Of a DNA stretch of 64,000 nucleotides, positions 3,764 through 28,131 are shown piece after piece; the stretch's first letter is position 1; each line of letters starts with the position of its first letter. The stretch is taken from positions 4,092,001-4,156,000 of the forward strand of contig NC_089430.1 in the NCBI RefSeq assembly GCF_026210795.1, given 5' to 3'. The position numbers and the translations under genes are program-made. The notes beneath the pieces are model-generated. The model saw nothing but the letters and a program-made list of their open reading frames with translations, did not search any database and was not told the DNA's origin. Source of the stretch: Rhizophagus irregularis. Lineage: Eukaryota.

Positions 3764-4689
3764 AAAAAAGCGAAATAAAAAGATCTTTCTCTTAGTAGAC
3801 AATGTACAGTTCATACTATTAGTAATTGGAGTTATTGATAAATATTACAATCCATTATTTGCCTCCCAATATTACAGTGCATCTGCAACCTGCTAATGCT
3901 GACATTATTAATTCATTCAAAGTTTGTATATTATTTATTATAAATTAGATTATAAAATTAATAGCACATATTCTAATAATTTATTAATCTTAGGTATAAT
4001 ATCGTAAAAGACTTATAAAAGATAGAATTAAGGCTTATGATAATGAATGGAGTTAAATATACTAGTTCCTAAATTGAAGATAAGTGACTCTATTTTACTT
4101 TGTACAAAAGCTTGAAAAGCTGTAACAAGTGAAACTATTTATAATTATTTGTCCAAAACTGGAATTTTGCCAATTTCGCCTTCACCCTCACCTTTACCTT
4201 CACTTTTACCTTCATCTTCTGATGAAGAACAAAATGATGATGGCCTAAATGAAATAGAAGAGATCCAAATTGTATCAATATAGTAATTTTATTTCTGGTG
4301 GATTAATAAGTGCTAAGAAATTTATCTTAATTGATAATGATAATAATTATGGGGGAGAAGAAATTACAGATGAAGAAATTGTAAATACAGTCAAACTTTG
4401 ATATAGCGAACTCTTGATATAGTGAATTTTTCAGACAACTATAATAAATTTCCTCTTGCTATAACAAATTAACCAATCAAATCTCTTAAAATTTTCACTA
4501 TAGCACTATCACAGGTCGAACAGATGTCATTGTCGCAAAATTTGCCTGGAATTTTTCTGGCAAATTGAGAATTATCCCGGTAAATTGAGGTAAATTGTGT
4601 TACAATTTTGGGATAATGGAGGTCTTACAATTTGGCAAATTTTGTCAAAATGGCGACAATCCTACACAATTCCTAATTCAAATGTTGAG

Positions 4690-5270
4690 AAATTTTTCAG
4701 AAATTTTAGTCAAATTTTTAGTAATTTTATGCAAACGTAATGAAAATTGTGGTGAATTTAGTTAAATTTTTAGTAATGTTATGTAAACGAAGTGCAAATT
4801 GTGGTGAATTTAATCAAATTTTTAGTAATGTTATGTAAATGAAGTGCAAATTGTGGTGAATTTAGTTAAATTTTTAGTAATGTTATGCAAACGTAATGCA
4901 AATTGTGGTAAATTATAGTGAATTTTTAGTAATTTTATGCAAAAGTAATGCAAATTGTGGTAAATTGTAGTGTATTTTTAGTAATGTTATATAAATTGTT
5001 GAAAATTTAGGTGAATTTTTCAGCAATGTTGTGCAAATGTAATACAAATTGTGGTAAATTTTGCATTTTTTCGGTAAATGTTAGCTAAACTTTTGATAAT
5101 TTAGTGAAATTTAGGATAATTTCGGACAATTGAGTGAAAATGTTTTACTGATTTTGGACAATTGAGTGTAAACGGTATAAATGCAACATTTTCAGAGACA
5201 ATTTAGTGAAATTTTGGACAATTGAGTGAAATTTAGTAATAATTTTAAACAATTTAGTGTAAACTCCACG
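4690..5270. repeat. Left subterminal tandem repeat (~53 bp unit)
   Basis: Recurring AAATTTTTAGTAATGTTATG…AAATTGTGGTGAATTT. Confidence 0.85.
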
Positions 5271-5434
5271 ACAATTTAAAACACTGTTTTAATAATTTCA
5301 CATAATTTATTATAATTTTATTTATTAATAAATGTACAATTATTATTATTTAACGATAATCTATGGATAATCTGCACCTCTAATTCATTCATGTATCAAA
5401 TGTTCAGTGCCAAAGTAGAAGCCGGTAAGTAAAC

Positions 5435-7420
5435 CAAAAAAAAGAAAAAAATGAAGCGTTAATAAACGTTTCGTTGAAAAAAAATCAAAATAAAGAAACA
5501 TTTCGAAGTATATACCTTCGAAATGTTAAATTCCATACGTCCAAGGACCGTTGAACCTAAAAAATAAAAAAAATGAAACGTTAATATACGTTTCGTTAAA
5601 AAAAATCAAATAAAAAAAATATTTCAAAGTATACCTTCGAAATATTGAATTCGGTTTGTCCAATGAGCCGCCAAACCTAAAAAATATAAAAAAAACGAAA
5701 CATTAATATACGTTTCGTTGAAAAAAATCAAAATAAAAAACAAACATTTCGAAGTATACCTTCGAAATATTCCTTTCGTTTTCACTGTTCCCTTTCGTTT
5801 CCCCCATTCGTTTTCACCTTTCCCGTTCATTTTCACCTTCCCCTTTCGTTTTTCCTTTTCCCTTTTCGTTTTTTCCTTTTATTTTCGTTTCCTCTTCCCC
5901 TTGTGTTTACTCTTTCCTTTTCGTTTTACCCTTTTCCCCTTTCGTTTCATCCATTCCTTTACGTTTTACCCTTTCCTTTTCATTTTATCCTTTCCCTTAA
6001 AGTAAAATAGAAAAAGAAACAAAAATTTAATAAATTAGATAAACAAAAAAAACGAAAAATTCCCCTAATTCCCTTTCCTTATTACCTTTCACCAAAGTCC
6101 GGGTCGTAATTTCATCCGGCATTCCTACAAGAAGGAAGAAAAGAAACGTCAGTTAACGTTTCTTAAAAAAAATAATTAATTATTAAGTTTCGCAACACAA
6201 TATTGCGAAACTCACCGGTTCGTTTCGAACTCCATCATCAAACGTCCGGCGTTCCTACAAAAAGTAAAAGAAACGTATGTTAGTATCGTTTCTTTAAAAA
6301 AAAAAATAATAATTAAAAAAATAAGATTCGCAATATTGCGAAACTCACCGGTTCGTTTCGATTTCCATTATCCAAACGTCCGGAACCTACAAAAAGAAAA
6401 AAAGAAACGTTAGTTAACATTTCTTACAATAAAAAAATAAAAAATTAAGTTTCGCAATGTAACATTACGCAAACTTACCGGTCGTTTCCATCATCCTAAC
6501 GTCCGGAACCTACAAAAAGTAAAATAAAGAAACGTTAGTTAACGTTTCTTATAATAAAAAAATAAAAAAAAAATTAAGTTTCGCAATGTAACATTGCGAA
6601 ACTTACCGGTCGTTTCCATCATCCTAACGTCTGGAACCTACAAAAAGTAAAATAAAGAAACGTTAGTTAACGTTTCATTTAATAAAAAAAAATAAAAATA
6701 AAGTTTCGCAACACAATGTTGCGAAACTCACCGGTTCGTTTCGAACTCATTATCCAAACGTCCGGCGTTCCTACAAAAGAAAAAAAGAAACGTTAGAAAC
6801 GTTTCCTAAAAAAAAATAAAAAAAAATTTAATTTTTTAAAAAAAGGGTTCGAAGAATTTCGCAACTTACCCTTTAGTTTCCTCATTTCCCAAACTCAAAC
6901 ACCGCAAATCCTACAAAAAAAAGGAAACATCAGTAATGTTTCCTAAAAAAAAAGAATTTAGAAAAAGTTTTGAGGCGAACGCCTCGAAACTTACCATTTC
7001 GTTTTTCCAAGTTGAATACGCCGGAAAGACCTATAAAAAAAAATAAAGGATTGTTAAAAATGTTCCTTATAAAAAAAAAAAAATTTTTTTTAGTTTTTTT
7101 TTTTAGTTTTCGAAACGAAAAGCTACCTTTCAGTTCTTCGTTTCCCGAAATCAAACACCGGAAGCCTACACAAAAAAAACAAAAAAAGGAAGCGTTGAGA
7201 AACGTTTCCTAAAAGGAATTAAAAAAATTAAAAAAAGTTTCGAAGCGAAACGCTTTGAAACTTACCCATTTCCTGGCTTTCTAAAGACGAATACCGAAAG
7301 ACCTAAAAAAAGAAAGTGTAGAAAGCGTTAGAAACGCTTCTAAAAAAAAAAAAAATTATTAAAAGTTTCGAAGCGAAACGCTTGAAACTTACTATTTCAT
7401 TGGAAGATTCTGACGCTGAT
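5435..7420 (-). ncRNA. Putative multi-exon non-coding transcript: 13-14 introns of 78-100 nt with micro-exons
   Basis: Introns at 7392-7303, 7265-7166, 7126-7031, 6994-6911, 6869-6771, 6731-6638, 6606-6510, 6478-6387, 6348-6255, 6215-6125, 6085-5996, 5759-5677, 5634-5557 (plus 5515-~5435 with mutated AG); GT donors (mostly GTRAGT or GTATAC), CTRAY-like branch sites, polypyrimidine tract and TAG (one AAG); no continuous spliced ORF found; expression not shown. Confidence 0.65.
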
Positions 7421-8099
7421 TACATAATTAATATGGTTATTGTTAATAATAGTAGGAAGGGAAAGGGGAAGGGGAGAGAAAGAGAGAAGGGGAAAGGGCG
7501 AAGGAGAATGGGAGGGAAGGTGAAGGTGAAGGTGAAAGAAAGAGGGAAGGGGAAGGTGAGAGAGAAAGGAAGGTAAAGGGCGAAAGAAAGGAGAAATAAA
7601 GGCATGAGAAAAAAAAATTAAGCTTTTTGCTAAAAAAAGCTTAATTTTTTTTCGTTATACCGCAGTTGAAGCTGCGGTAATTATTAAGTAATATCGCGTG
7701 ACGCACGTGATATATAATTTTATATAAATAGGGGCATTTTCCCCGAAAAATTTTTTTTTTATTATAATTTTTTTGATAGATGTATATATATACTTATATA
7801 TATACATATATATATATCTATCTAATAACTTTACGAAAAGCCCCTCCTCTGTAAACAGGTAGAGGCCATAAAGTACCTATAGGGGGAGAGCCGTTGCTGC
7901 TCCCTCCGCCTGTTTATAGTGACAAAAGAGGGAGTCTTCAGTAGTAAGGTTTCGTATAAATTAAACAACACATCGTGTTGATACATTGTTAAAATTAACA
8001 ATGTGAATTTAATGTTAAATAATGCGTTAGAATATAAATATTATAAATTTAATAATGTCCGTAATTTTACAAATAAATAAAAATTATCCTAACAATTTT

Positions 8100-9110
8100 A
8101 ATGTAATTAAGTGTAATGCTACATTATCCTGTGTAATTGTAGTATTTTTTTTGTGTTTTTTAGTGCAATTCCGCGTTTTTAGTGCAATTCTGCGTTTTTA
8201 GTGCAATTCTGCGTTTTTTAGTGCAATTCCACATTTTTTAGTGCAATTCCGCATTTTTTAGTGCAATTCCGCGTTTTTTAATGCAATTCCGCATTTTCTA
8301 GCATAATGTTACATAACACGAAATTTTCTAAAAATATGATAATTGTGGTACTTTTTAGTGTAATGCTACATTGTCTAGTGTAATTGTGGTATTTTTTAGT
8401 GCAATGCTGCATAATTTAGTATAGTGCTACATTTTTTAGTATAATTTAATGTAATGTGGAATTTTCCAAAAAATGTGATAATTGTGATGCTTTTTAGTGT
8501 AATTTGGTGAAATGCTACATTTTCCAGTGTAATGCCATATTATTGAGCATTTTCAAAAAAAAAATGTAACATTTTAACATTCTGACGAAAGTGAAACATT
8601 TGACCAAAAAAACATAAAATTTGCTAAAAATATGCAACATTTGACAAAAAATATAGAATTTTCATAAAAAAATGCACCATTTGCTAGGAAATCGGAATAT
8701 TTGACAAAATTTGATTTTAATTGACAATGTTATAACAATTTTATGAAATGTTGTTACAATGATATCACATTGGAGATAAAATGTGGCATTTTCATAAAAA
8801 TGCACCATTTGCAAGAAAATTGGAACATTTGACAAAAAAAAAGCAAAATTTGATTTTAATTAACAATGTTATAACAATTTTATTAAATGTTATTACATTT
8901 GAGGTAAAATGTGAAATTTTCATAAAAATGCACCATTTGCAAGAAAATTGGAACATTTGGCAAAAAAAAAGCAAAATTTGATTTTAATGACAATGTTATA
9001 ACAATGTTACGAAATGTTACAAAAATGTTACATTTGAGATATAATGTAGCATTTTCCCAAAATTTCATAAGATTTGCTAAATCGGACAATGTTGTAACAA
9101 TGCTATTCCA
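8100..9110. repeat. Right subterminal tandem repeats
   Basis: ~20 bp units TTTTAGTGCAATTCCGCG (8155-8300) and ~130 bp units containing AAAATGCACCATTTGC. Confidence 0.8.
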
Positions 9111-9722
9111 AAAAATTGCTCAGCGTAATGCAGCATTTTCCACAATTTCCCACAATTTTCCAGGAAAATGGGGAATTTGCATTTTTTGAATTTTGGACAA
9201 TGGCGCCCCTTCGACCTGTGCTAGGGTTCGTTATAACAAGAATTGACTGTATAGTAAAACCAAATGAAACAGATCTTAAAGAAAAAGAATTAATTCTACA
9301 ACCCAAAATATCCACTTCAGAAACATTAACATCTATTATTAAACAAAATATTATCTTTTCTTGATAATCCATCTGATACTTTTTTTATGAAGTTCAATAA
9401 CAGAAATATATTATATAATAATCTTAAAAATAAATTATTTGTTTCAATAAAAATAGTAAAGTTCAATTGGTATTAAAAACATATGATGGATCGTATGTAA
9501 CTTAATATTATAATAATTGATAATATAATTTTTTTTTTTGAACATTTATTAGTAATATAATATAAACATTTATATTTTATTAGTAATATAATTTTTTGAA
9601 CATTTTTATATCAATGTATTTTTTTTTTATATAATAAAGTTCAAAAATCTTTATATCATAAATATTATATAAAAAATCATATGATTTTTGATATATTAAA
9701 CTTTTTATTGTTTACTTATAGA

Positions 9723-10224
9723 TAAAGCTTCTAATAGTTCAGGCTAAACTAAAGAACCAATCTGAAACTGGCTAAAAAAATCTTTCAGATCCAAAATTCA
9801 GTTCAGTTCGGTTCAGGTATTAGAACTGAAAAACTGGCAGTTTGATTCAGTTTAATCCCATTTTTTACAAAAATGTGAAAAATCAAATAGCTGTCTATCT
9901 AGTGATCATATAAAGTTGAACCATATATCATTGGATTCCTCTTAACGAGATGCGTCAAATGGTGGTAAGATCACATCTTTAGCATTGATAGATCACAAGT
10001 TAATCTATGCTAAATGATTTATAAATAATTGAAAATATCAAGCTATCTATTGGCGCTAGAGATAGGATCTTAGCACCATTTGATGCATCTCAGTGAGGCG
10101 AATCCAATGAATATTAATTCGTTCATATACGATTACTAGATGGCAAATAATATCAAGTTTCACATTTTTTTAAAATTTTTGAGCGTTGAAAATTAAAAAT
10201 TCTGATATATGAATTTATTTCATC
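9723..10224. mobile_element. Truncated copy (one arm) of hAT-type foldback element
   Basis: Starts TAAAGCTTCTAATAGTTCAGG, matching the TIR of 23973-25084; colinear with ~24030-24435. Confidence 0.75.
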
Positions 10225-10732
10225 AGGAAATTTTGGGGGTGTTATTTTACTAATAAATATGTCGGTTAACACTAAACAGTTGTTCAATATATTGTTCAAT
10301 GCTGTATACTGTAATGATCGACATAAAGTGTTGTTATATGCAATATAATTAATATAATTACACACATTTTTTATGTTATTTAATACGAGCGTAATTCAAT
10401 ATAATATATTGTGTAATTTAATGCTATCGTTCAATACAAACAACACTAAATGTTGTTTTACTAAAATTTAATATAAAAATACACTAGTTTTTATACCCAT
10501 TTTCTAACAGTTTACGCATTTTTCATTACAAATTTAGGTTTAATGCTATCATTTAACACAAACAATACCAAATGTTGTTTTACCAAAATTTAGTATAGAA
10601 ATACACTACCATTTTTTAACACTATTTATTATCACTAGATATAGTTTAATATATTACAGTATTGCTATACTAAATTAACATATATAAATACAGTATGTTA
10701 TTATATATACAGCTAGTATTTTATATAGATAC

Positions 10733-13700
10733 CTAAAATAAAAATACGTTGACAAAGTATTCATTTTGGCATTTTGTACGTTGAATTTTGATTCCACAGG
10801 TATAAAATTATATTCATTTATAAGTTTTAATAATGGACAATCGTACTTATACAAATGACGTTGATCATTATAACAAAAATCATACTATCTAACTAGCACA
10901 AGATCAAATGATGAATAATTTTTAATTACAATATTAACCAACATAAGTACCTAAAAAGAAATAAATAGTTAATTTATTTGGCTTAGATATTATATAATAT
11001 ATTCAATAATAAAACAAATAATACTTTTCCAAAACATGTTCCTTCATTGGTATTATAATCTTCAGCTTCTTCAACATTCATATTAATTGAAACATTACTA
11101 AATTCTGGTTCATTATAGTACTTGCTAACTGCTCGAACACAATCTCCACTAGCAGTCATATTTGTATAACTATACCAAGAAATAATTGTATTATTAATAA
11201 TCATCTCCTCGGTTAAATTATCATCTAAATCAAAAAACTCATTTAAAACTATGAGAAATTGGCTTAACGCTAACAAAGCATCAGAAGCAAGACTATTTTT
11301 TTCCTTATAACTATCAAAAAATTCGTCAAAATTTTCTAATGCAAATTTTCCCAATAACCCCTTTAACGATGTGAATTTTTGAGATTTTTTTTGTTTAGTT
11401 TGATGTATCAAGTATTTTAACGTTGTTTTGTGTTGAACCTATAAAATAATTAATTTTTAAATGACATCAAGAATGAATTTAAAAAATACTATACTAACTG
11501 TATTAATAATTTGTCCCATTAGTTCTCGTTTGTTACTTGATCTGTATGGATTTTTGACGTAATCTTTGTGCAAAAACTCGTATGTTTCTGTTGTATAACC
11601 ATTAATTGCACCAAACTCTTCAATTGAATTAATGATGTGATACACCCAATTGTGTAGTTTGGGCAATTTAAGTTCAGATCGGGAATAGTGTTGGAATAGT
11701 TTCACAAATGCTGTTATCCAATCTGTTATTAATTTCTATAATAAATAAAAATCAAATAGTTGAAACAAATGTTTAATTAAAATGATACTTTTTTTAAAAA
11801 ATTACTTTAAATTCTACCAGTTCCGAATTCGTAAAATATTCTTTTCGGCTAAATAAATACATTTTATTCTACCGATAATAAACATTAACCAATGCATTAT
11901 CTTGTTTTTTAGCGTTCTGTTCTTTGCTGTACTTTATTATTAACCCTTCAATTACGAAAAGAAATACTTTTATCATATTATAGTATTCATTTACCGTAAG
12001 GCGCTTAATATTTTCTAATCCATGTTTGAAAATTTTAAGCCCTAGAAATCTAGGAATAGTGGCTAAGCATTTGTCAAGTTCATCAACTGCCACTTGTCCA
12101 CATAGATTTTTCAACATTTCTTGTGTATAAATTACTTGATATTTATACAATCCTAGATCGAGATGATGCATCCTATCTGGGTATGTTGCTAAATATATAT
12201 CAAGTTGACTAAAGAATAATATATAAATAATATAAGGTGGCTAATTCAGTTTTTATTATTATTTAATTAATATATTGTATTAATTTTATCTGTTATAATA
12301 AAATTGACTTACGGATATTTCCAAAAAATATTATTCATGTCATATATCGAATATTGATAAGCGAGGCGTTGATTTACAATATTTTTCATGGTTGTTGGCG
12401 TTCTTAATTCTATTTCATCATTGCTTAATCTTAAATTATTCAAATCTTCTCTAGAAATTAAACATTTATGGTAAGGATATTTACTGTTAATCGAGTATGT
12501 TAACGTTTGTGTAGCATTTTCTGGAAGATCTTCCAACAAGGTAGATATATACGGAAAACACCATATGTCTCCATTATTTGTTTGTAAATCAATGCCCCTA
12601 TCTTTGTATGACAATAGCGGATGCATCATGACATCAAATGCTTTATGAAACAAAGTCTTTTTTGTTAGCAAAAATCTCCTTGATTTTTTTTCCGAAATTG
12701 TTTTTGCTTTTAATATTAGAAGATAACAAAGAAGAACTTTAGCGTCAGGTTTATTATGATGCCAGTTTGGTATATTACCTAAAGTCAAATACACTGGATG
12801 CTCAGATAATTTTCCTATTTGGTCACAAGTTGTAGCATCAGAATAAAGAATTATTGATAAAATATTTGCCGCGTTAAGAAGCGTATTTTGTGTCTTTTCT
12901 CACCATTTTCCATTGAATTGTTCACTATAAATTCTTTGGCCTCAATTGTATAATGGTGTAAATTTAAAGATACAATGTTCAAAAATATCATTATTACTCA
13001 GCAATTCTTTTATAGCATCAAAAATCTGTCGATAGTGAAGGTAGTATGTTTCATTATTATATTTCATTATAGGCACCTTTTTGAAAGAGGTATGTGATTT
13101 TGCTAATTGATCCAAAAACTTTCGGCCTTGTTTCACTGAAGTAGGTAAAACTACATCATCACGAGCAATACTTTTTGAAAATTTAAGTATTTCATTACTA
13201 CAAACATCTGATAGATCCCATTTAACAAGTAAGCTCATAAAATTTCCAAACTCCTTGGACAGAAAGTCTATTTTGTCACTCGTAGTAATATCAATATTTT
13301 GGCAACTGGCAGATATTCCACATCAATTAACTCAAATTCTACGTCCTCCTGTAGTAAACGGACAAAAAGCTTGTTAAAAGCTTATTTTATTGATTTTAAA
13401 TTGTGTTAACTTAATACCTGAATTTTTTCATCTTCATTATCTTCCATTTCTCTTTCATCAACATCATCGTCTTCTAGTACTTCATCTTCTTATACGTCAT
13501 CATCTACATCTTCTTTTATGTTCGTCACTTCCATGTTTATTTCTTTTCCTACATCTACTTCTACATACAGTCAACTCTTGTTATAATGAACCCTAGGTTC
13601 TAGACTTCAACTTCGCTATAAGGCTATAGTGAAGATTTTAAGAGATTTGATTGGTTAATTCGTTATAGCAAGAGGAAATTTGTTATAGTTGTCTAAAAAA

Positions 13701-14038
13701 TTCACTATATCAAGGGTTCGCCATATCAAGGTTTGACTGTACTCTCTTTCTATATATGTTTTCACATTTGTTTCTCTGTCTATATCTATTTCATTATTGT
13801 ACGCCATTTCTTCCTGTTACTCTTGTTGATTAAAACTTTCTTCTGCGTCTTTTAAACGGTACGTTTCACCATCATATTGCTCTTCATCATTATTTTCGTT
13901 TAAGATAATTGTATTATTTCTTTTATTTGCAATTTCTTGCAGATAGCTGTCTATTGTACTGCCGTGAATTTTTATATGATTTCTAAATGCCGTATGACAA
14001 GAAAAGTTTCTTGAACAATAAGAACACTTGAATATCAT
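10733..14038 (-). pseudogene. Plavaka-family transposase with N-terminal C2H2 zinc finger, multi-exon, decayed
   Basis: FKCSYCSRNFSCHTAFRNHIKIH; ILYSDATTCD…HPVYLTLGNIP; DRMHHLDLGL; KLHNWVYH…GYTTETYEFLHKDYVKNPYRSSNK; premature stops, frameshifts, MITE insertion. Confidence 0.85.
13568..13739. mobile_element. Tigger-like MITE, 172 bp, inserted in the Plavaka gene
   Basis: TA|CAGTCAACTCTTGTTATAATGAACCC … GGGTTCGCCATATCAAGGTTTGACTG|TA. Confidence 0.9.
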
Positions 14039-14501
14039 TTTTACGGTAATGTTTTCAAACGAATTTGATAATTCTTAAATTTATTAGTATATTTATGAAA
14101 TTATTAACAAAGGTAAACAATTTATATACAATTAATTATTTAGAAGTAATTTCAACTTGTGATGACAAACTAAAATAATACAATGGTATTTTATTACTTC
14201 AAAGAGGAAATGGGTCTGTTATAATCAAGTGATTTTGAATTTATGATGACATAACGAATTAAGTAAGATATCAAGTGCTAATTTTCAAACTGAAGTGATG
14301 TTTGCTTATTTTATTTATTTGTACTAGTTACAAATACTTTTGCTAATATGCTAACAGTTTTTAGAACATGCTGACGGGTGTGGATTTGGAATTTTTAGAA
14401 AAATAAAAGAATGCCTATTTTTTTGGCTTTCTCTTTTTTATTAAAATCACCATTTCTTTTACCCTATTTTTTATTAATCAAACTATCATTTAGTAACAAT
14501 C

Positions 14502-15012
14502 ATGGTTAAAAGTCGACGTTCTAATAATTCTAAGAAAACTACAAAAAATGCTGAAGTTTCCTCTATGGATTTTATTCTACATCGTCCTAAACGAAAAGAA
14601 ATACAGGTTCTTTATTATATTTGTTAACATTATCGTATTAATTTATTTTTTTCAAAATAATACTAATATAATATTTTTCGTTATTTTATTAGACCTTTGA
14701 TGATGATCAAAGTATTTAATTTAAATTATTGCTATGTTTGTCTATACATTAATTTTATATTAACACATTTTATTTCCATTGAATTAGCTAACGAGGATGA
14801 TAATGTAACTAAATCTCCTGCAGGCTCACCTTCATCATCATTGGAGTCTTCAAAACAAACAAAAAAGCTTTATCTTGATTTTGATGATGCAATTATGCCA
14901 GATTTAGTCCCACGAATTGTAATTGAAGATAATGAAAGGAATTCGTCTGCAGAAAAAACAATTCTTCATGAATCTGCTATTTCTCCAGAAGTAATTTCAA
15001 GATCAAGCGTTA
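14502..15012 (+). pseudogene. 5' exons of a divergent gene next to the Plavaka transposase (unknown function, truncated)
   Basis: ATG 14502 MVKSRRSNNSKKTTKNAEVSSMDFILHRPKRKEIQ, two short GT-AG introns, then …NEDDNVTKSPAGSPSSS…; cut off by tandem repeat. Confidence 0.5.
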
Positions 15013-15605
15013 GTAAATTGTGGTTTCATTCTAATTTGATTAATTCATTGAAATATTTTAACTATAATATTACGCAGGTTTACAGTCTCGTAAATTTTCA
15101 AAATATTTCAACTGTAATATTACGCAGATTTACAGTCTCGTAAATTTTCAAAATATTTCAACTGTAATATTATGCAGGTTTACAGTCTTGTAAATTTTCA
15201 AAATATTTTAACTGTAATATTACGCAGGTTTATAGTAGGACCCTGGAAAATGCTTATATATGTAAAAGTACCGAGTCTTGCCTAAACATAGTAAAGTTTT
15301 ATGATGTAAGAATTTTATAATGCTTAATTTTAAGAAAATTTTATACTATGTAAGATAATTAAATTGCATATTTTTGGTATTATTTTAAAATACTAAAAAT
15401 TTTTAGTTGCTTATTTTTCATATTTATATAACTTTTTAAAATATTATATATTGAATTTATAATTAATTTTTATTTTATTTTCACTAACGGTGAGTGTTAA
15501 TTTTGTACTACATTTCACAATTTTATATAAATACATAAACAAAAATTTTTTTTTGATGAAATTTCATTTTTTTTTTTCAATGTTTTATTAATTATCTGTC
15601 AATAG

Positions 15606-17320
15606 TAGAGTTTCGAACCAGATTTATTTTTTAAATCTGAATTAGATACGAATAAATCCGGTTTCCTTTGGTTCAATCTGGATATAATAAATCCAGTTTC
15701 CTTCAGTTAATCTGGATATAATAAATCCGGTTTCCTTCAGTTAATCCGAATATAATAAATCTGGTTTAATTTCAGCCAGTATTATTTATTAAATTTTAAA
15801 TAAAACAAATAATTTACGCAGGGGCATTGCAAAGCACTCCTATTACGTCATTTACATGGTAAGTTTTGATTAGTTATTTGTTTAATAATATTTCTTTTGC
15901 AACGTTTCTAACAAACTGAAACTTTTTTTTCTCACCATTAGACACGAATCCAGGCTGCTAAGTGGGGAAGGGAGGATTGGACACAAGCCCTTTAGACGCG
16001 AACCATGGGAAGGAGTTAGAGAAGGGAAATTTCTTACAGTCGTTTTTGTCAATAAATTTCATTTTTGACATAATTCAGTTTTTATATAATGTAACAGTTC
16101 TGTTCATATTGATTTTTACAATCGTAATGTTAGTAAATTTTACAATTTTTTTTTGTTAATAACATGCATTTTTCTTTATTTAATTAATAAACCTAAAACA
16201 AATACATAATAGCAACGTTCTAAGACATATATTTACTAACTAAATCATAGTTAAAACTGAATCCAACTAAGCTACTGATAATTGACTTGATTATTAATTC
16301 TATAATTAAAGAAAAACTTATTTCCCCTCTTTGTTTATGCTATAAAACCTTCCAAAAAAAGCTATAAAGAAGAAATAACTAAAACTATATTAAAAAAATT
16401 ATTACAAGAAATAAATAAAATCAAAAAAAAAAATTAATAAAAATGAGAAGGGAGTAAAAAAAGATGGTAGTGAATGAAAGAAAGTAAAAATAAGCAAAGA
16501 AAATGCAAAGAACAAAAAAAAAGTAAAAAGGAGATAAAAAAAGTAATAGGTAATAAAAAAAAAGTAAAAATGGAGCATAAAAATGAAAAAAGTATAATAA
16601 TAGGAAGACAAAAAGAGTGAATAAAATAATTAAAAACAAATAATAATTGACTGACACCACCCATTAAAATAAAGAGAAAAAGAAAAAAAACTGGTTAATA
16701 TCTTTTAAATAAAGGAAAGCAATAGAAAACAAGAAAGACAGAGTAGCAGACATACCTTAAATAAAAATCTTACCTTAAATTGTTTTAAAAAATGTCAAGT
16801 TACAAAAAGCAAAAAATAAAAAAAGAAGCCTTACCATTTTTACCCAATCAATAAATGGAATAAATATCAAAAAATATCAAATTTGCAGGATAAGTAATTC
16901 GGGCAGAAGTTTCATACGCAGCCATACGCTGATACGTAATTGATCATCATAATTCTGGCCAAATTATAAATTTGACCAGAATTATAATTTCCATTTTAGG
17001 AAATTGATGTTACACAAATTCGAAAAAGGAAATTTTCATTTTTTAGAAAAATCAAAATTTGTAGAATGGCTATCGCCAAAAAAGGATATGATAGGCATAG
17101 CCGTAGTTATAATTCTGGCCAAAATTATAATTTGGCCGGAATTACTGCCGATCAATAATAAAACTGAATAAAACCGAATATAATAAATCTGAATGAAACG
17201 AATAAAACCAGATATAATAAATCTGGATGAAACCGAAGCAACCAAATCTCTCCGGGTTTAAATCTGAACCGGGTGAATCTGGATTTAAATCCGAATGTCG
17301 AAGGTCAGATCCAAACTCTA
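15606..17320. mobile_element. Non-autonomous hAT-type element
   Basis: TAGAGTTT…AAACTCTA termini; perfect 8-bp TSD GTCAATAG (15598-15605, 17321-17328); subterminal GATATAATAAATC repeats. Confidence 0.9.
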
Positions 17321-17604
17321 GTCAATAGTATCTTTTTAATTTTTATTAAACTCAGTGTATTATTTTTAATATAAAATTACTATATTATACATGTTTATTT
17401 TGTTAAATAATCTGAACGATATAAATGATCCTAACACGTGGACACAGTACAAACTCCAGGTCCCCATATATGCGTACATGGATGATACGATATTTCTAGA
17501 ATTGTCAAAGTATAGGATGCAAAAGATAGTGGATATAGCGAATGAGTTTTACTTGATTAATGACATTAATATCAACGCCAAAAAGTCAGAGCTGATAATT
17601 ATCA

Positions 17605-19397
17605 CATATGTGCCAATTTTTGGAATTAGTCTAAATTAAGATTTTTATAAAAATTTATATTTTAGTAAGATTAACATTACACAAATCTAAATTAAATATG
17701 TGTTACATATTTACGTAACTCAGATTTAATAAAAAATAAAAAAAATTTTTTTAATAAATATTTAAAAATAACGGTAATAACCACTTCTTTTTCCCCATCA
17801 CTCCCATCACTTTTCCATCATTTTTCTATTCACTTTTATTAAATATGACAAAAAAGTTTATAAGCAAATATAGCAGTTATTTTTAAGTGGTAAGTAAAAG
17901 AAAAAACTTAATATTTTATATACATAGATAAGACATATTTTTTTATAATTTTTAGCTTTAATTTATTGTTTTTTCTTTTGTAAAAAATACATGCAAATAA
18001 AAAATAATTATGATGTAAAATAGTTGTAAAATGAATAATAAGATATTTTTTTTTTTCAAAATAACTAATTATATATTTGTTTTTTATCTTTTAAAATTAT
18101 TTTATTAGATTTATTCTACTAAAATCCTTAAATGGCAAATAAAATCTTTTAAATAAAGTAAAAGAATTTGGGATTCTCTTATGAAAGCATTTTTTGGTAA
18201 GAAAAAAAATTTTCAGATCGGACTTTATGCAGGTGACAAAATCGTGCATTATTATTCCTGGAGATATGCTAACGTCATCATTTTACATTCATTTGAAAGC
18301 TGAGAATTTGCTCTATCGTAAGAATCAAAGATCAGGAAAATTGGATCACTGGATGAGGCGTAATTAATGATCAAAGTCAAATCAAATTTAAAAATTAAAA
18401 ATAAATATATTAGATGTAATTATTCACAATCCAGTGATTCAATTCATTCGATTTTAGGCTTATTAGATAGACCTCAATTTTCTCTTTCAAATGAATATAA
18501 TTTCATTTGTGTAGCTTGCATCTACAGGTATTTAATAAATTTTTTTATATCAGATTTTATCAAACTTATAAAATTTTATATTAATAATATAATTGATGAT
18601 TCCTAAACATCTACCGTATATCGCGGGCCATAGTACAACCCCTATGCATAGTACCCCCCTTGAAAAATTTCATAGAATTGTATAGTACCCGGGGGATATT
18701 TACAATTATCTCGTGATCTAGTGATCAGATTTGAGCCATCATTTTTTTGTTTGATAGCACTCATTGAGCTCTTCAAAATAAAAAAAAGATCGTTCAAATT
18801 GGACTGGTAGATCGTGAGATATTCGCAAAAAACAGAATTTTTAGGCTTTGTTTAGTACCCGGGGGTACAGGGTCAAACCCCGATTTTTGCAAGATACCCA
18901 GGGTACTGTGGCCCGCTATATACGGTACATATATTAAACGAATTATTTTAAATTTATTTTAAAGATAAAAGTTGGCATCACCTTAGGGAGCAAAGATCAT
19001 TCAAATTGAATCACTACATGTGAAGTAATTAATGATCAAATTTAGATAAAATTCAATAAATATACTGAACGTGATTACTGAACAACTAGTGATTCAATTC
19101 ACTTGATTTTAGATTCATTAGATAGATCTCGATTTTCTCTTTCAAATGAATGTAAATTTATTTGTATAGCTTATTTTTACGAAGAATTATCAATGATTTT
19201 GTCATGAGAGTTATATTTGATCTTTTAAATTTTAATGATATCTTATATTAAAAAAAAATTAAAAATTATATAATTAATTAGTTTTTTTTGCATTATCTAG
19301 TATAAATTTATTATTCTTATATAAATGATAATTTATATTTGCTTTAATAAAATTATTTTTATATAAAAAAATTAGATTCCAAGGATCGGCCCATATG
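17605..19397. mobile_element. Non-autonomous TIR element inserted in the LINE RT domain
   Basis: TIRs CATATGTGCCAATTTTTGGAAT vs rc CATATGGGCCGATCCTTGGAAT; RT KSELIII resumes NPTVEKQ after it; no clean TSD. Confidence 0.8.
18614..18925. mobile_element. pogo/Tc2-like MITE (CCGTA termini, TA TSD)
   Basis: TA|CCGTATATCGCGGGCCATAGTAC … GTACTGTGGCCCGCTATATACGG|TA. Confidence 0.9.
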
Positions 19398-22300
19398 AAT
19401 CCGACAGTGGAAAAGCAAGAACAAAACATAGAACTGGGTAGGGACCGTTCAATAGTTCAAGCTACGAATAATGAAATAAGATATCTCGGTGTTTGGTTTT
19501 CTAACAAACCAAGCAGATGACGATGGATGCAACGTCTGTTCACGATAGTCAATGAATTTTGTAATACAGTCCGAAGGAAATTTGTTCTAGCGGGCCAATG
19601 TATATATTTAATTAATAGAGTGTTGATATCCAGATTAATATATATAGCTCAAATCATGATATTGACAGAACATGATTGGAACTAAGTATTCGCCCCGATA
19701 ATGAAGTTAGTAAAAACTGGTTGAAACTACCTAAAAACACACCATCATCGTTATTATTTTATGAAGGGGGATTCGGTATGGACCATCCATGGAAACACTA
19801 TTGCATTAACAATATAATAGATCTAACGATTAGATTAAATAGTGATTCACACGCGGCAACATCAACACAAATCAGACTTAAAGACACGCAGCTTAAATCA
19901 CTCATTACTGATCCGATTTTTGACTGTGATCTTAATGTAATGCACTAGATAAAACCACAAACTCAGAAAAACATTTCATTTAACGCTTTGGTAATAACAA
20001 AAACTCTTGATATGTCAATGGCAGTAGATCCGATTGACAAATCAAATTGGAGCATTACAGGAGGGAAAGAGCCAATACTGAAATTTTTTAAACAGTTTTA
20101 GCTTACGAAATACATATATAGAATCAATCAAAGCGTACATTACCCAATATTTTACATTGATCAATTATTTATTAGGAGAACATATCTTATGACATGGAAA
20201 TAATACCATAGATTAGCATTACTTCTGGTACAAGGAAGAACAGCTAGATGGTACCGTGATGTGGCTCATTTATGCACATCCAGAATAGATAATCTAATAG
20301 TATCAAACGAACTGGAGATTACCAAAGTTAACCATTGGCCCTTTTTACAAGATATCATACCAGATGCACGCCGAAAACAAGCTATTTTTATACAGGAATC
20401 ATCAGCGGAATCAAATGTATGGACAATAGGTAAAGTTAATAAAATACGCCGCCATAAAAAAGGGATTTTAGTGAACTATCACCCAGGATACAATGATAAT
20501 GGAATCATTAAATGGCAGAACATGGGAAGATCTATTACGGCTGAATGTTGCAAGGTGGTGATATTAGATAAAGTCCCTAATAAACAGGGATGGAATTTCC
20601 CTTATGAATAGATAAATTCGAACCAATTAGACGCATCAATACCCAACAATAACCTACCATCATCAGCACTAGATCCCATAATCATCCTATCATCGGTTCA
20701 AGACATATGGATTCATAGGTGGATAGAAGATGACAAACTGAAATCGCGATTAATGGATATTAGAAATATACTGGCAGAGAGATCATTGGTAGATTACTAC
20801 ACAGATGGATCACTCACACCAAGCACTCCCACAACAATGGGTAAATAAAATCCCAACTTAGTGTATACAAATATGGGTGCGACATTTTGTGTCAATAATG
20901 AACCACACCTATCAGCCCAAGCAAATTTATCGCTATGGCCTTCATCCACAAGATCGGAATTGGTGGCAATTTTTATGGCACTACTCACAGCCCCAATGAA
21001 TGCAATAATCAATATCTACACAGATAGTCAAAATGCCATTTGCATGATCAATAATCATCATAATAAATCGGGCAGGAAATTATTGAAGCAGACAAATTCC
21101 TTAATCCTACTTAAAATTAACATTCTTTTACAAGAAAAAAAGATGGAACTGATATTAGAGAAAGTTAAGAGATATAGTGGAGATGCTATGAATGAAATGG
21201 CAGATGAATTAGCCAAGAGCACAGGCAATAGCAACCATTATTTCAACAACAGATTTAATTATAGTAATAGAACAGTTAGATTTTTCCCAATTTTCAAATA
21301 GATACCAATTGAATATAATTTAAGGAAGTTTATTAAGACCCTAATGAATCCGAGAGTGGAGCAGAATGGTCGATACTTAAAACAAATGAATATGAAACAC
21401 CAATTGACTGGAACATAACTTGGAATTTAATTCATAGATACAAAGGATTCAACTGTATTTCAGTTAAAAAGCATTGGCATCTAATATTTATTACTAAATT
21501 ATTTGCTAAACTTCTTCCTATAGGTACTATTCTACTCCAAAGAAAGCCAGATATATACAAGGATTTTGTTTGAGCAAGATGTAATGCTAACAAAGAAGAA
21601 AGCAGATATCATTTTATTGAATGTGATGCTAATAAGAAACTATGGCCTATAATTAAAAACAAAATGCAAAATGATTTAGTTCCTATAATTCAAAAATTAA
21701 ATGATTCGCCAGAGAACACATCCAAGATTATAAGTGAAAAATTAAATCAAATACTAGGATCACAACATGATAACAATAAGTTTACTGACTTCTACTTACT
21801 GGCTTTAGAAGCTAAGATTAACACTAATTTTTCCAAAATTTCAAAACAGACATTTGGATTATCAGAATCAAAAACATTTTACTTCTGGCCTCCCTCTTAG
21901 ACTCATTTATTATTCATTTTAAAGAATTAATTTGGCTACCAAAATGTAATGCTACTGTGGCATGGGAAAAGGCAAGAAATATTGGAAGAAAAGATAAACT
22001 AAATAGATCTGAAAATATGGATCGCTATTACAAATCCTCACATCAAAATTCTAAACATCTAAGACAGGATAAACAATACCTAAAAGAGAACAATTTAATA
22101 GATTCACAGGAAGATCAGATTGTAGTACTGGATGATATTCCAATTGAACAGAAGTCAGTGCAGTCAGAAACTTCATTAAATGAAAATCCCATTTTATCAA
22201 AGTTCCATAGGGTGGGGAAAAAAAGCACATGATCAAATGTGCTTGTTAATTAGTAACAATTGGTGGTACAGTTGGGCTTATAAGAAAACAAAAAAAATTA

Positions 22301-23879
22301 TTAACAATGTTGTGATAGACTTAGAAACAATATGACTAAGCCTATTGGGAATTTATTGTGAATTTATTTTGGGATTATTTAATCAATTTTAAAGCATATT
22401 CTAAATTGTATTATTTAATTTTTAATATTTAATCTTTTATTCCTATTTTATTTTATTTTATTTTATTTTGTACTTTTAAATTTAGTTTTCTATATTTGTA
22501 TATAATTTACTTTATATTTATTGTTATTTTACTTTTACTTTTATTTTTATTCTTTATTTTATTTTATTTTATTTTACTTATTTTGATAGCATTTTGATGA
22601 TCGCATCCTACTGGGTGGATATAGCTCATGATAATTTGTTTGTATGGTATATAAACTTAATATCAATAAAGCATATATAGATCATTAAAAAAAAAAAAAA
22701 AATATTTTGTTAAATAGTAAAATTACTATAAATATGTTTTACTTTAAATATAATTTCAATACTCACCACTTTGGTTATATCAAATTATCTTTTATGCTTA
22801 AGTAAGTTTGTTCAGCAAGTTAAATCTACTTGTATTTTAATTTTCATAAGGCTAAGTATGATATTTATATAGAAAAGCATATTTTTTTTAACGGTAATAA
22901 CTTTTAAATTTTTCACTTTTTCGTTTATAACTTCAGAGCGTAATTACACCACTTCAGTCAAATGAAATCGACTTTCTAAATTAATTGAAAGTTGTTCAGC
23001 AAGGTCGAAACTACTCATAAATTAATTTTCATGAGTGTGGGTATAATACTTATGGAGAAAAGTGCATTTTTCATAACGGTACTAACTTCCGAATTTTTCA
23101 TTTCTCCGTTTACAACTTCAGAGCGTAATTACACCTCTTTGGTCAAATGAAATCGACTTTCTAAATTAATTGAGAATTGTTCAGCAAGGTCGAAACTACC
23201 TACATATTAATTTTTATGGGTGTAAGTATAATACTTATGGAGAAATTTACATTTTTTGTAATAGTATTAATTTCGAATTTTTCTTTTACTGTTTATTAAC
23301 TTTATTAATTGAATATTGTTAATCTACTTGTATATTATGTTTAGTTTAGCTTCACAACATATTTAAAATTGGATTTAATAAAATATATTAATTAATAAAT
23401 ATATTTTATAAATTATATGTATTATAATAAAAATTTAATTAGGTTAGAAGATTGATTTGCTTATTTTTATATAATTTTTAAGGTTAGATATCAACAATGC
23501 TTAGCGATCATAGTAAAAACCTATGCTTAGAGCTACTAATAAAAAATATTTTCGGGACTTTACCTATATAAGTATTTTCCGGGGTCCTTTTACAGTCTTG
23601 TAAATTTTCAAAATATTTTAACCGTAATATTACATAGATTTACAGTCTTGTAAATTTGTAGAATATTTTGACCATAATATTGCGTAAATCTTACGATATT
23701 GAAAACTTGTGTAATATTTTAACCATAATATCACATAAATCTTACGAAATTGTAAATTTACGTAATATTTTGAAATTTTTCAAAATATTATGCCATAAAC
23801 TTTCATAAACTTACAAAATCATAAACTTATGCAATTTTTCATGCTATAAAATTTTCTGATAATTTTTTTATAAAAATAA

Positions 23880-25960
23880 AAATAAAATATTAGTTTTGTA
23901 ATGAAAATTTACGTTTTTAGTATTCAAAAAAAATAAATTTAAATGTTTTACCTTTAATATAGAAGTTCAGAATAAAGCTCCAAATGGACTAAATTATAGA
24001 CGATTTGGATTAGAACTGAAATTCATAAGAACTGAACTGAAAAACTGGCAGTTCAGTTTGATTTAATTCAATTTTTATAAAAATGCGAAAAATCAAATAG
24101 CTGTCCATCTAGTAATTGTACAAAGTCAAGCCATATATTATTAGATTCCTCTCAATGAGACGTGTTGAATGATAGTAAGATTATATCTTTAGCATTGATA
24201 GATTGCAAAATAACTTACACTAAATGATTTATAAAAAATTGGAATTAGCAAACTATATATCAATATTAAAGAGATATGATCTTAGTATCATCGACGTGTC
24301 TCAGTGATATGAATCTAATGAATATTAATTCGTCTGTGTACAATCACTGAATGGCGAATAATATCAAGTTTTACATTTTTTTAAAAATTTTGAGCGTTAA
24401 AAATTAAAATTCTGATATATAAATTTATTCATCATCCAGTAGTTATACAAATATGAATTAGGACTCATTAGATTCGTCTTGATAAGATGAGTTGAATAGT
24501 AGTGAGATTATGTCTCTAGCGTTGAGCATTAGTAAGCTATCTATCGATGCTAGAGATGTGATCTCACCACCATTCAATTTGTCTCATTGAAACGAATCTA
24601 ATGAGTCCTAATTTATATTTGTATGACAATTGAATGACAAATAAATTCATGTATCAGAATTTTAATTTTTAAATGCTCAAAAATTTTAAAAAAATGTGAA
24701 ACTTGACATTATTTGCCATTCAGTGATTGTACATGAATGAATTAATATTCATTGGATTTGTTTTACTAAGACACGTCAAATGGTGCTAAGATTATTATGT
24801 CTCTAACATTGATAAATAGCTTACTAATTCCAATTTTTTATAAATCATTTAGTGTAGGTTAACTTGTAAATTGTGATCTATTGATATTAGAGATATGATT
24901 TTACCATTATTTGATGCGTCTTATTAAGGGGAATCCAATGATATATAGTTTAATTTTGTATGATTACTAAATGGACGACTATTTGATTTTTCGCATTATT
25001 ATAAAGATCAGATTAAACTGAATTAGAGCCAGTTTCAGATCAGTTTTCTGATTTATCCTGATTCCTGAACCATTTGAAGCTTTAGTTCAGAACTTGTTTC
25101 AACTTTCTTTATCTAAAAAAAAGTAATATAAACATTAGTTAATATTTGTCAATAAAAATTAATAAAGAAAAAATTTTTTAAAGTTTTTACTTTTGAAGTA
25201 AAACCCAGAACTGTTTTCAGCAACTGAAACTTAAAAAATTAATAAAATAAACATTAATATTATTCATTAAATAAAAATTAAAATAAAAATTTGAAGGTTT
25301 TATCTTTAAAATAAAGTGTTCTGAATCTACAATTAAAAAAAAAATGAATTTTAGTTAACATTTATTAAATAAAAATAAAAAAAAAATTCACTTTTTTTTT
25401 AAGTATACTTTTAAAATTCTTTTATCCAAAAGTCAGAGAACTAAAACTCTACAAAAAAATAACTGAAATATTAGTAAATATTTTGTAAATTAAAAGTAAC
25501 AAAAAATATATAAAGAATTTTAAAGTTTTACCACTGTTTTACTTTCAAAATTTCATATAGGTTTTTATCTAGTAGCTATAAATCTAAAAAAATAAAATAA
25601 AATAAAATGTTAGTTAATATTTCATTTAAATAAAAAAAATGAAATAATTTTGAAATTTTACTTTTGAAATTTTATTCTGAAAAGTTTTCAGAAATCATGA
25701 ATCTATAAAAGAAAAAAATTGAAATGATGTTAATAAGAATATTTTATTAACAATAACAAAAAAAAATACAAGATAGTAAATACCTTTAAAATTTCATTTA
25801 GAAACCTATTTAGAAGGCCGTAAGTCTACAAAAAAGAAAAAATGAAAATGTTAGCAAACATTTTGTTTAAAAAGAAATAAAAAAATATTCAAAATTTACT
25901 TTTGAATTAGAATTTCAGTTAACTTTCTTTATTCAGAAGATTATTTGCAATCTAAAAAAT
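23880..25960 (-). other. Second, degenerate micro-exon/structured-intron array, interrupted by hAT foldback
   Basis: Recurring minus-strand GT(A)AA donors (23951, 25190, 25408, 25531, 25661, 25783, 25899), CTAA branch sites and TAG acceptors (25113, 25449, 25584, 25703, 25826, 25952). Confidence 0.55.
23973..25084. mobile_element. hAT-type foldback element
   Basis: TAAAGCTCCAAATGG … CCATTTGAAGCTTTA; perfect 8-bp TSD GTTCAGAA (23965-23972, 25085-25092); long internal inverted arms. Confidence 0.9.
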
Positions 25961-28131
25961 AAAAGAAAAAATGGTTATTAGTAATAGGAACCCTGACATT
26001 ATATATACAATTCAGAGAGTAACTTTTTAGCAAATTGGCCTAAATTTCAAAAAAAAATCACGTTTTTTGCGATTATTTTGGCATCTAGTAGTCCAATTTA
26101 TGCAAACTTTTTTTGTTTTGTAGCCTTATTGAATGTTTGAATCCTTTAGTAACTATTTGTAATAATAAAATAAATAAATAAACTAAGATTTGTACTTATG
26201 AATTTTAGTTCCTTAGCTTATTATCCTTCAATTAATGCAAGCATTTATAAATAGGGATGGTAAAGTTCTAGGTCCTAGACCTAAAAACCTAGTCCTAGGA
26301 TCTGGTCTGCAGATTTTTAAGTTCAAATTTTGGACTAGAAGCAGACCAGGTTCTAAAAAGTCCTAACTAATAAAGTATTATTATATATTAGATAAACATT
26401 AAATGTGTAGGTTATAAGAGATTTATATAAAATAATATTATGTTTAAATTATATATGTATAGTTTGCTGTAAATTGTAAATTTGATTTTAAGTAATAATA
26501 AATTATAAAAAATGCACTGCAATATTGCAATACAATTTTTATATTATTAAAATCATATTAAAAAATGAGTTGCAATATTGCGATTCACATTTTTATATTA
26601 AAATCATATAAAAAAGTGAATCGCGATACTGCAACTCACTTTTTTTATATAAAATCAATATAAAAAGTGAATCGCAATATCACAAATCACTTTTTTTATA
26701 TTTAGTTATCACTAAATTCATAAAATCTATAAATAACTTAGTCAGGATCAGGTCTTGGGACCAGAACACTTATTATGATTGCTCAATATAAAAAAAATTA
26801 ACATCCAAAATGATGAGAATGACCAGCCAAAAAAAAATATTTACCAATTCTATTGACGATTTTTCAGTTATACTTACATGTAATGTACAAGTTTTAATTA
26901 TAAATGATTAGAAAATACAATTAGAGGGTGAATAAAGAAGGTACCAGCTTTGAATTTTAAAATTAAACTGGTAAAAGTTTCTAGAAAGAGTATATTTTAT
27001 TTTTATTATATAAAAACACTTGTTAATATTTTTATTTGTTTTTTTTTTATAGGTATGGGGTTTATATTGAAATTAATCCAAGTAATAAAAATAAATTTTT
27101 TTGAATAATTTTTTTTTAAAAATAGTGCTTTAAAAAGTAGTGTGAGACAACTTAAAATAAAGAATAAATATATAATACATTATACTGTTAATAATAAAAC
27201 AAAGAATATTAACAAATCATATGAAAAGAATTTTATTGAACAAATGCTTATTTTTAATTTCAGCTAGAGTTACGAACTAGAAAACTAATTCTGGCTACTA
27301 TAATAAATATTATTTAACTGGTGAGATTTTTGCAAATCCTCTTCCCTTTTAGTAATTACATGATATGTATCACTTCCCTAAAGTTATTATAAAATAAAAA
27401 AAAAAAGTTCATTAAAACTGGACTACTGAATGCTAAGAAAATTGTATAACTTTAATTTTTATACTTTTTAAAAAATGGGCCAATTTGCTAAAAATATAAC
27501 TTATAATTTATTTTAGAGATTTCTAGAATTTTTACTTTATAACAAATGTTATAATAAGATGCAATATATATTGTATTAAGTTTATCTTATTTATTAATCA
27601 TTATTACATTTAATTTTAGACTAGTATTTTATTATATTATATGTATGAAAAAGTAATGTAATACTATAAGAGATAGTTACATCTGCAACTTTATTGGTTT
27701 GTCATATATATAATAGTTATAGTAGTTTAATGTTAGTGATTTTTGTTTATAAAAGTAACAAACAGAAGTCTTTATATAACTACTTAATATCATTCTCAAT
27801 TAGTTAACATTTTATAAAATCCTATCATTTAATAAAACCTGACTGTCTTGAAAAATTAACAAATCTTGTATCTCTACCTATAAGACATCAAATATAGGAT
27901 ATGTAATCTTACAATTATTTTCAGGTTTTATTATTAATTATGTAAATTACATGCATGATAAAAGATTTTAACTACCAATTCTTTTTACATTGTTAAAAAA
28001 ACTATTTATCACGTAACAAGTATTGAAAAAGTTGATAATTCGAAGATAATATAATTAAAAATATCAATTTAAAATTAAGAATCCTGAATATAGTAATAGG
28101 GGTTTCTAATTCAAGTAGAATTTAACCTTAG

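Follow-up and report, generated by a model that had tools for sequence, protein, structure and literature searches.

Introners, or introner-like elements, are spliceosomal introns of fungi, structured and grouped in families of similar copies, that enter host genes one at a time and at new positions. snoRNA host genes combine many short non-coding exons with introns that look like the payload. Among DNA transposons, PlavakaB is defined by CATCA..TGATG ends, TET genes carried on transposons have been proposed to counter silencing by methylation, and movement of TET/JBP genes from one transposon lineage to another is reported (PMC12730594, Kojima 2025). Of the repeats in the arbuscular mycorrhizal fungus Rhizophagus irregularis, some two thirds are given as unclassified (bioRxiv 2023.12.01.569630). 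The stretch of this genome analysed here (64,000 nt, NC_089430.1, positions 4,092,001 to 4,156,000; hereafter the window, GC 28%) holds two arrays of intron-like units on its minus strand. The second, array 2, is a decayed, twice-interrupted, non-coding exon/intron-like string, a cargo of DNA transposons in arbuscular mycorrhizal fungi, and a fossil member of a widespread and apparently undescribed class of transposon-borne hairpin-intron arrays. Our full reading, to which we assign a probability of about 0.5, is that array 2 is a decayed copy of a non-coding multi-intron cassette that would engage the spliceosome and help DNA transposons escape silencing; the descriptive part of this reading is much firmer than the whole.

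Array 2 reads from the sequence as nine intron-like units (I0 to I8) and eight exons of 23-52 nt, laid out as an exon of about 40 nt, GT, a T-rich spacer, a YTAA branch motif and a T tract ahead of AG. An earlier note had counted about eight minus-strand units between 23880 and 25960; nine are present, six with both GT and AG, and they reach upstream to about 26250. From the 5′ end, with acceptor and donor as the limits of each unit, these are I0 (25952-26199), exon e1 (25900-25951, 52 nt), I1 (25826-25899, 74 nt), e2 with I2 (25703-25825; exon 42 nt, I2 25703-25783, 81 nt), e3 with I3 (25584-25702; 41 nt, I3 25584-25661, 78 nt), e4 with I4 (25449-25583; 41 nt, I4 25449-25542, 94 nt), e5 with I5 (25327-25448; 40 nt, I5 25327-25408, 82 nt), e6 with I6 (25231-25326; 23 nt, I6 25231-25303, 73 nt), e7 with I7 (25113-25230; 40 nt, I7 25113-25190, 78 nt) and the divided e8 (41 nt) with I8, whose donor is at 23951 and acceptor at about 23868. 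I1 to I5 and I7 are GT-AG units, and three units are broken: I0 has AT for its donor GT, I6 is dead, with an AT donor and an AA acceptor, and I8 keeps its GT and ends in AA. The donor G of I0 at 26199 is present in RNA reads of relatives (49/56, 40/58 and 24/30). A deleted donor at I6 was considered and rejected, the change being a point change, and IRE1-type introns were rejected on loops that lack the IRE1 motif. The units are 73-94 nt long, compared with 67-104 nt for four RNA-confirmed host introns, and in GT/AG (6/9), branch motif, T tract and host-like length they fit putative U2 spliceosomal introns.

Two insertions interrupt the string. More than half of the span given in the earlier note is an unrelated fold-back insertion outside the array proper (23973-25084, 1112 bp), which splits e8 into a 5′ part (25085-25112), ending in one target-duplication copy, and a 3′ part that lies with I8 at 23868-23972. 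This insertion is self-inverted at 78%, matches as an inverted repeat over 14 of its terminal 15 nt and is flanked on both sides by an exact 8-bp target duplication, TTCTGAAC; a second, partial copy lies at 9823-10225. The 8-bp duplication and short terminal inverted repeat fit a hAT-type MITE, which we take the element to be, the superfamily label coming from the length of the duplication. The other insertion (25984-26166, 183 bp) lies within I0 and is missing in relatives, in both DNA and RNA: the joint from 25983 to 26167, which skips it, is carried by one DNA contig and, on the RNA side, by 2 and 7 reads.

At its 3′ end array 2 does adjoin a tandem repeat of about 50 bp, as array 1 does, but the repeat belongs to a neighbouring Plavaka element. 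Its unit is 51 bp; it occupies 23598-23771 and resumes at 15051-15236, across a nested insertion of 8.35 kb (15237-23588) that has inverted ends and an 8-bp duplication with one mismatch. Subterminal repeats and an eroded right terminus together span 23589-23861 on the minus strand, and a 262-nt alignment matches the terminus at 23861, with 71% identity, to the end of an element in a metagenomic locus (L058), where that end starts CATCAGG. The left terminus and a transposase remnant lie at 10221-13322 (minus strand), with CATCAGG at 10221 on the plus strand and a match to the Plavaka transposase family PF18759 at 12312-12899 (E 1.7e-21). On its transposase and CATCA-type termini, the right one eroded, the neighbouring element (10221-23861) is of PlavakaB type. 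Since the repeat follows the eroded terminus at 23861, this terminus faces array 2 and cuts the array off, and we rejected the 51-bp repeat as an end belonging to array 2. BLAST gave no similarity between this repeat and the 52-bp one that flanks array 1. The flanks of the Plavaka element do not match, and its left end cuts a copy of array 2's fold-back element; the unmatched flanks make a rearrangement between the ends at 10221 and 23861 possible.

Several other features of this neighbourhood and of the window deserve mention. Divergent from the Plavaka transposase, an intron-containing frame at 14500-15140 (plus strand) runs into the 50-bp repeats and has no Pfam match; the 8.35-kb nested insertion contains a retroelement-like region (19700-22230), decayed but with an RNase H domain; and a cluster of palindromic 51-bp repeats at 26483-26720 reaches a summed contig depth of about 312,000, compared with about 70 for a single-copy gene. 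Farther along are a PARG macro-domain gene (46095-47480), for which cyanobacterial proteins at 36-40% identity are among the closest matches once fungi are set aside, and a short TAACCC-type telomere-like repeat (62008-62068). One protein encoded in the window is 99% identical to a protein of R. irregularis, and other Glomeromycota follow. In four instances an array is situated within or next to a Plavaka element (the flank of L035 at 4041-4163, L058:106-880, L074:950-1104 and window position 23861), and this may reflect targeted insertion or a parasite-helper relation.

Array 1 belongs to a minus-strand element at 4510-9220 that is bounded by inverted CACAGGTCGAA ends and contains 13 hairpin units, aligned here, at 5431-7404 as well as the 52-bp repeats at 4705-5112. 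Its donor hairpins are of two types: in ten units the stem is mostly intronic, and in three the exon end is paired with the intron start. Array 2 has the second type, and its units are eroded forms of the donor type in array 1's last three units. Array 2 is AT-eroded, as the earlier note described (GC 16%). The homology with array 1's last units points to divergence by decay from that type and not to a second design.

Whether so eroded a string exceeds chance was assessed with profile and covariance models, using 200 dinucleotide shuffles per unit for eight array 2 units. A profile HMM from array 1 placed four of the eight above all their shuffles, the others being matched by 1, 2, 3 and 20 of 200. 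With a profile from 60 intact metagenomic units, hand-picked from the displayed part of 204 parsed units with near-duplicates and odd lengths left out, seven of eight exceeded every shuffle and the last and most eroded unit, I8, was matched by 2; the units therefore do score better than shuffled AT-rich sequence, and the four host introns scored far below them. A covariance model from the 13 array 1 units, the check proposed in the earlier note, gave a more divided result: I1 was its best match outside the training set (E 0.015), but five further units fell at noise level (E 0.16-8.6), a weakness that follows from 10 of the 13 training units being of the other donor-hairpin type. A second covariance model, R2, built on the 60 intact units, recovered I1 (E 4.8e-6), I4 (0.019), I7 (0.042), I3 (0.065), I5 (0.27) and I6 (1.8) and missed I8, while both covariance models missed I2. 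All of its top 16 matches in the window were inside arrays 1 and 2. Furthermore, six of the eight exons matched one of 193 library exons better than all 40 shuffles when compared in purine/pyrimidine space; e1 had no significant relative, 25 of 40 shuffles being as good.

Relatives came from a metagenome scan that returned at least 124 matches. The search pattern required one intact donor hairpin, so statistics on donor stems are partly built in, while the branch stem was absent from the pattern. Arrays, recognised as AT-rich sequence with at least two branch-type hairpins, were present in 51 of 122 fetched loci among the matches listed, and they are associated with at least two types of terminus. 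These outside data support the proposal that one design recurs in several families of elements; the argument from the local repeat fails. Searching for intact copies with inverted ends was likewise productive: L035 holds a whole element of 3.9 kb that has inverted ends of CATCG type and no transposase, CATCG- or CATCA-type ends also follow arrays in L004, L027, L028, L058, L064 and L078, and CACAGG-type termini occur in L039 as well as in array 1 of the window. The CATCG ends (L035 and five other loci) are one base off the PlavakaB CATCA, with which L078 ends. The flanks of L035 end in GAA and start with TAA, and no Plavaka transposase was found inside the array-bearing elements, the match in L035 lying outside its termini. 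A common last exon closes the arrays of four loci with different surroundings (L009, L035, L053 and L078). No I0-like donor or array 2 5′ end was present among the metagenomic loci. Viral contigs yielded one chance match to the donor pattern and none to the 51-bp repeat or branch patterns, and TET-like searches there gave 0 and 3 weak matches without arrays; prokaryote genomes gave two chance matches, at 54% GC.

The gene-like exon-intron anatomy could suggest a decayed protein-coding gene of many micro-exons. This is very unlikely, since the joined exons of array 2 (320 nt) hold 10, 9 and 10 stops in the three frames and no reading frame, a rough rule for in-silico splicing left each frame of five intact arrays with stops, and exons tend not to be a multiple of three in length (only 25 of 112 distinct exons are). 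The read-through frame of L003 finds a single match, an identical unnamed prediction. The related copies are very probably not ordinary coding genes.

The intact arrays instead display a conserved layout. The 204 units parsed in 66 loci (median 79 nt; a few overlap) keep their signals strictly in one order and on one strand: GT first, then the branch motif, the T tract and finally AG, with GT and AG having been required by the parser. In the 60 aligned units 88% of cells are paired, and 28 cells have two-sided changes compared with 7.6 in shuffles; the branch stem folds at z < -1.5 in 53 of 60. Two-sided changes in palindromes can arise at the DNA level, a point against our preferred reading. 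The arrays could conceivably be DNA platforms in which a protein encoded by the element, acting in anti-silencing or transposition, binds tandem CpG palindromes (TTCGAA, AACGTT), the intron look being inherited from a captured intron. Such a platform would suit the CpG observed/expected ratio of about 2-2.6 in intact arrays and the run of about two dozen tandem branch-type hairpins, seen by eye, that has no donor or acceptor between them (L035:600-1700). TET-like genes downstream of arrays in two loci, a Myb/SANT gene in L009 and the tandem repeats formed by VANC targets in Arabidopsis (PMC5735166) would also agree with it. The fixed order and strand of the splice signals, together with splice Gs that outlast the palindromes in array 2, nevertheless make this account unlikely, though it is the foremost of the competing ones.

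A further alternative is a neutral satellite, in which one captured, structured intron-exon unit was expanded by slippage and unequal exchange, with DNA repair keeping the palindromes and no function. The hairpin run in L035 and a second sub-unit amplifying alone downstream of the array in L023 (T tract, AG and short exon in tandem, without donors) show that sub-units amplify freely, as a neutral satellite would do, and amplification without splice sites counts against our preferred reading. The lack of an ORF and the near-silence of array 2 would fit as well. Against this, exons diverge strongly while splice signals and stems persist across many loci, arrays are retained in elements with different termini, and splice Gs are spared in array 2; we regard a neutral satellite as improbable, behind both the DNA platform and the silencing trigger discussed below.

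The manner in which array 2 decayed bears on the spliceosomal reading. Array 2 retains 2 CpG in 965 nt (observed/expected 0.32), compared with ratios of 1.9-2.6 in four intact arrays (array 1, L003, L035 and L058). The nearest intact exons, being relatives rather than ancestors, served as the reference: by transition, 101 of 157 G/C positions have become A/T and 18 of 143 A/T positions G/C; the loss extends to 76 of 114 non-CpG positions and amounts overall to about two thirds. The two hairpin motifs described are where the earlier note placed them (donor 25887-25907, branch 25845-25864), but they belong to I1, the best unit and the only one of eight to keep both (folding z -2.4 and -3.6). Averaged over array 2, the folding z is -0.15 for donors and -0.84 for branch points, compared with -4.5 and -3.1 in the 60 intact units. 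RNA reads of relatives restore the branch-stem CpGs of I1 at 25849 (108/134, 62/94 and 45/64) and 25860 (48/55, 39/58 and 17/26).

Donor and acceptor share an AG|GT context in intact units. At the junctions of array 2 the exonic G was lost in 13 of 17 cases and the intronic splice G in 3 of 17 (hand tally; Fisher p=0.0016), in an array that had been noticed for its surviving GT/AG. Trinucleotide mutation bias cannot explain both sites because donors lost the first G and acceptors the second. In intact relatives the trend has the same direction but is not significant (7:2 versus 7:12, p=0.10). No other observation so far hints as strongly that splicing mattered as this decay pattern, in which G/C was lost and splice Gs survived. 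The copy in the window is now probably dead, as its read depth is low, its hairpins are gone and three of its units are broken.

Three polyA runs, chosen by species label and each read to about a quarter, two of them representing one sample, provided RNA evidence. Four host introns were spliced in all three, with 36-183 reads per joint. Depth over array 2 was 0.2-3.8 per orientation (25056-25815), and no GT-AG joint appeared among the 15 of 19 joints listed, at low depth and with 40-nt diverged exons that map poorly. Array 1 reached up to 70-fold depth, mostly from relatives, and likewise had no GT-AG joint among the 15 of 53 listed, its exons being subject to the same poor mapping; partial joint tables and such exons make this a weak test. 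Loose ends of array 1 reads lead from T tract and AG into other exons, and introns are thus retained. Reads containing introns of array relatives occurred in all three runs, from libraries that look unstranded: the array family is transcribed with retained introns. That the units are spliced introns we infer.

Retained introns could also mark a silencing trigger or decoy, whereby hairpins stall spliceosomes and the RNA feeds or soaks up spliceosome-coupled RNAi, limiting or shielding the family. Hairpins covering donor and branch point exactly, and intron-retaining reads among the listed loose ends, would be expected of it. In Cryptococcus, transposon RNAs that splice poorly are turned into templates for siRNA (PMC5851062), and 41% of R. 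irregularis small-RNA loci are reported as unannotated (PMC8647823). The same reads could, however, come from A-rich antisense or internally primed RNA, the libraries looking unstranded, and we consider a trigger or decoy unlikely, next after the DNA platform. The Cryptococcus precedent also counts against our preferred reading, since hairpins that slow splicing would invite silencing.

Candidate partners lie downstream of some arrays. Only three array loci had more than 2 kb of downstream sequence; in L053 (484-2010) and L065 (857-3378), TET/JBP-like genes follow the array by about 0.5-0.6 kb on the same strand. Their products are predicted TET/JBP dioxygenases from PF12851 matches (E 2.6e-7 and 3.1e-8; 30.4 and 33.4 bits) that lie below the gathering score of 34.9. 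The L053 protein has 111 homologues, most with PF12851, and the named ones are all from Glomeromycota, where the TET/JBP-like family is large; the paper on transposon TET genes (PMC12730594) does not deal with it. L009 carries a Myb/SANT frame after a spacer resembling that of L065. No TET match occurred within the window. The TET link rests on two loci with scores under the curated cut-off, which counts against our preferred reading.

Under that reading, of a spliceosome-engaged cassette, the intact string would likely be transcribed and engaged by the spliceosome, and would be predicted to help its element escape silencing. Units would multiply by tandem duplication and the cassette would move between element families. 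Intact copies would fold CpG-rich hairpins over donor and branch point, slowing splicing and producing intron-retaining RNA, and splice signals would have been under selection while the lineage of array 2 eroded. Most speculatively, the many loaded spliceosomes may give the element the appearance of a gene, and the cassette of some elements may work with a TET/JBP demethylase encoded downstream that keeps the CpG hairpins intact. A broader version, in which Glomeromycotan transposons share a mobile splicing cassette of 10-15 mini-introns with CpG-rich donor and branch hairpins, swapped between superfamilies and forming with TET/JBP an anti-silencing system that uses the spliceosome, is tentative and unlikely.

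We found no published description of such arrays among titles and the beginnings of abstracts, and none pairing introners with Glomeromycota; consensus repeats that correspond to the array-bearing elements may already be on record without a name, for example in Repbase or supplements. The hairpin-intron array is a common, recognisable module among unclassified repeats, and a profile now finds it. The most similar known transposons are PlavakaB and others of the CMCT clade; the ends of the neighbouring element, L058 and L078 fit the CATCA type, and array-bearing elements have the near variant CATCG..CGATG. The termini of array 2 were not found and are probably lost, and no target duplication of 2-3 bp was clear at L035. 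The available text of the PlavakaB paper (PMC12730594) does not mention Rhizophagus or Glomero- names, and its three uses of "intron" concern gene prediction. Repeated stwintrons, in the accounts available, resemble the arrays as families of similar structured fungal spliceosomal introns. Introners differ in that the arrays are head-to-tail units between 40-nt non-coding exons in transposons, with hairpins over the splice signals; single dispersed copies of introner kind were absent from the window's top 16 R2 matches, and the metagenomic loci hold tandem units. Short non-coding exons also recall snoRNA host genes, but the introns here are about 80 nt and T-rich, and none of the five intact loci scanned had an Rfam match. 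VANC targets of VANDAL transposons are, like the arrays, tandem non-coding repeats in a DNA transposon, tied to loss of methylation; the available account mentions no intron anatomy for them, and a protein binding the hairpin arrays is only putative (PMC5735166). SCANR in Cryptococcus, where stalled spliceosomes serve as a signal for RNAi, is alike in that inefficient splicing of transposon introns links the two processes; it is, however, a host defence, whereas the array here is borne by the element (PMC5851062). If the units are spliced, transposons would carry a purpose-built non-coding intron array of their own, tying splicing to silencing or to escape from it.
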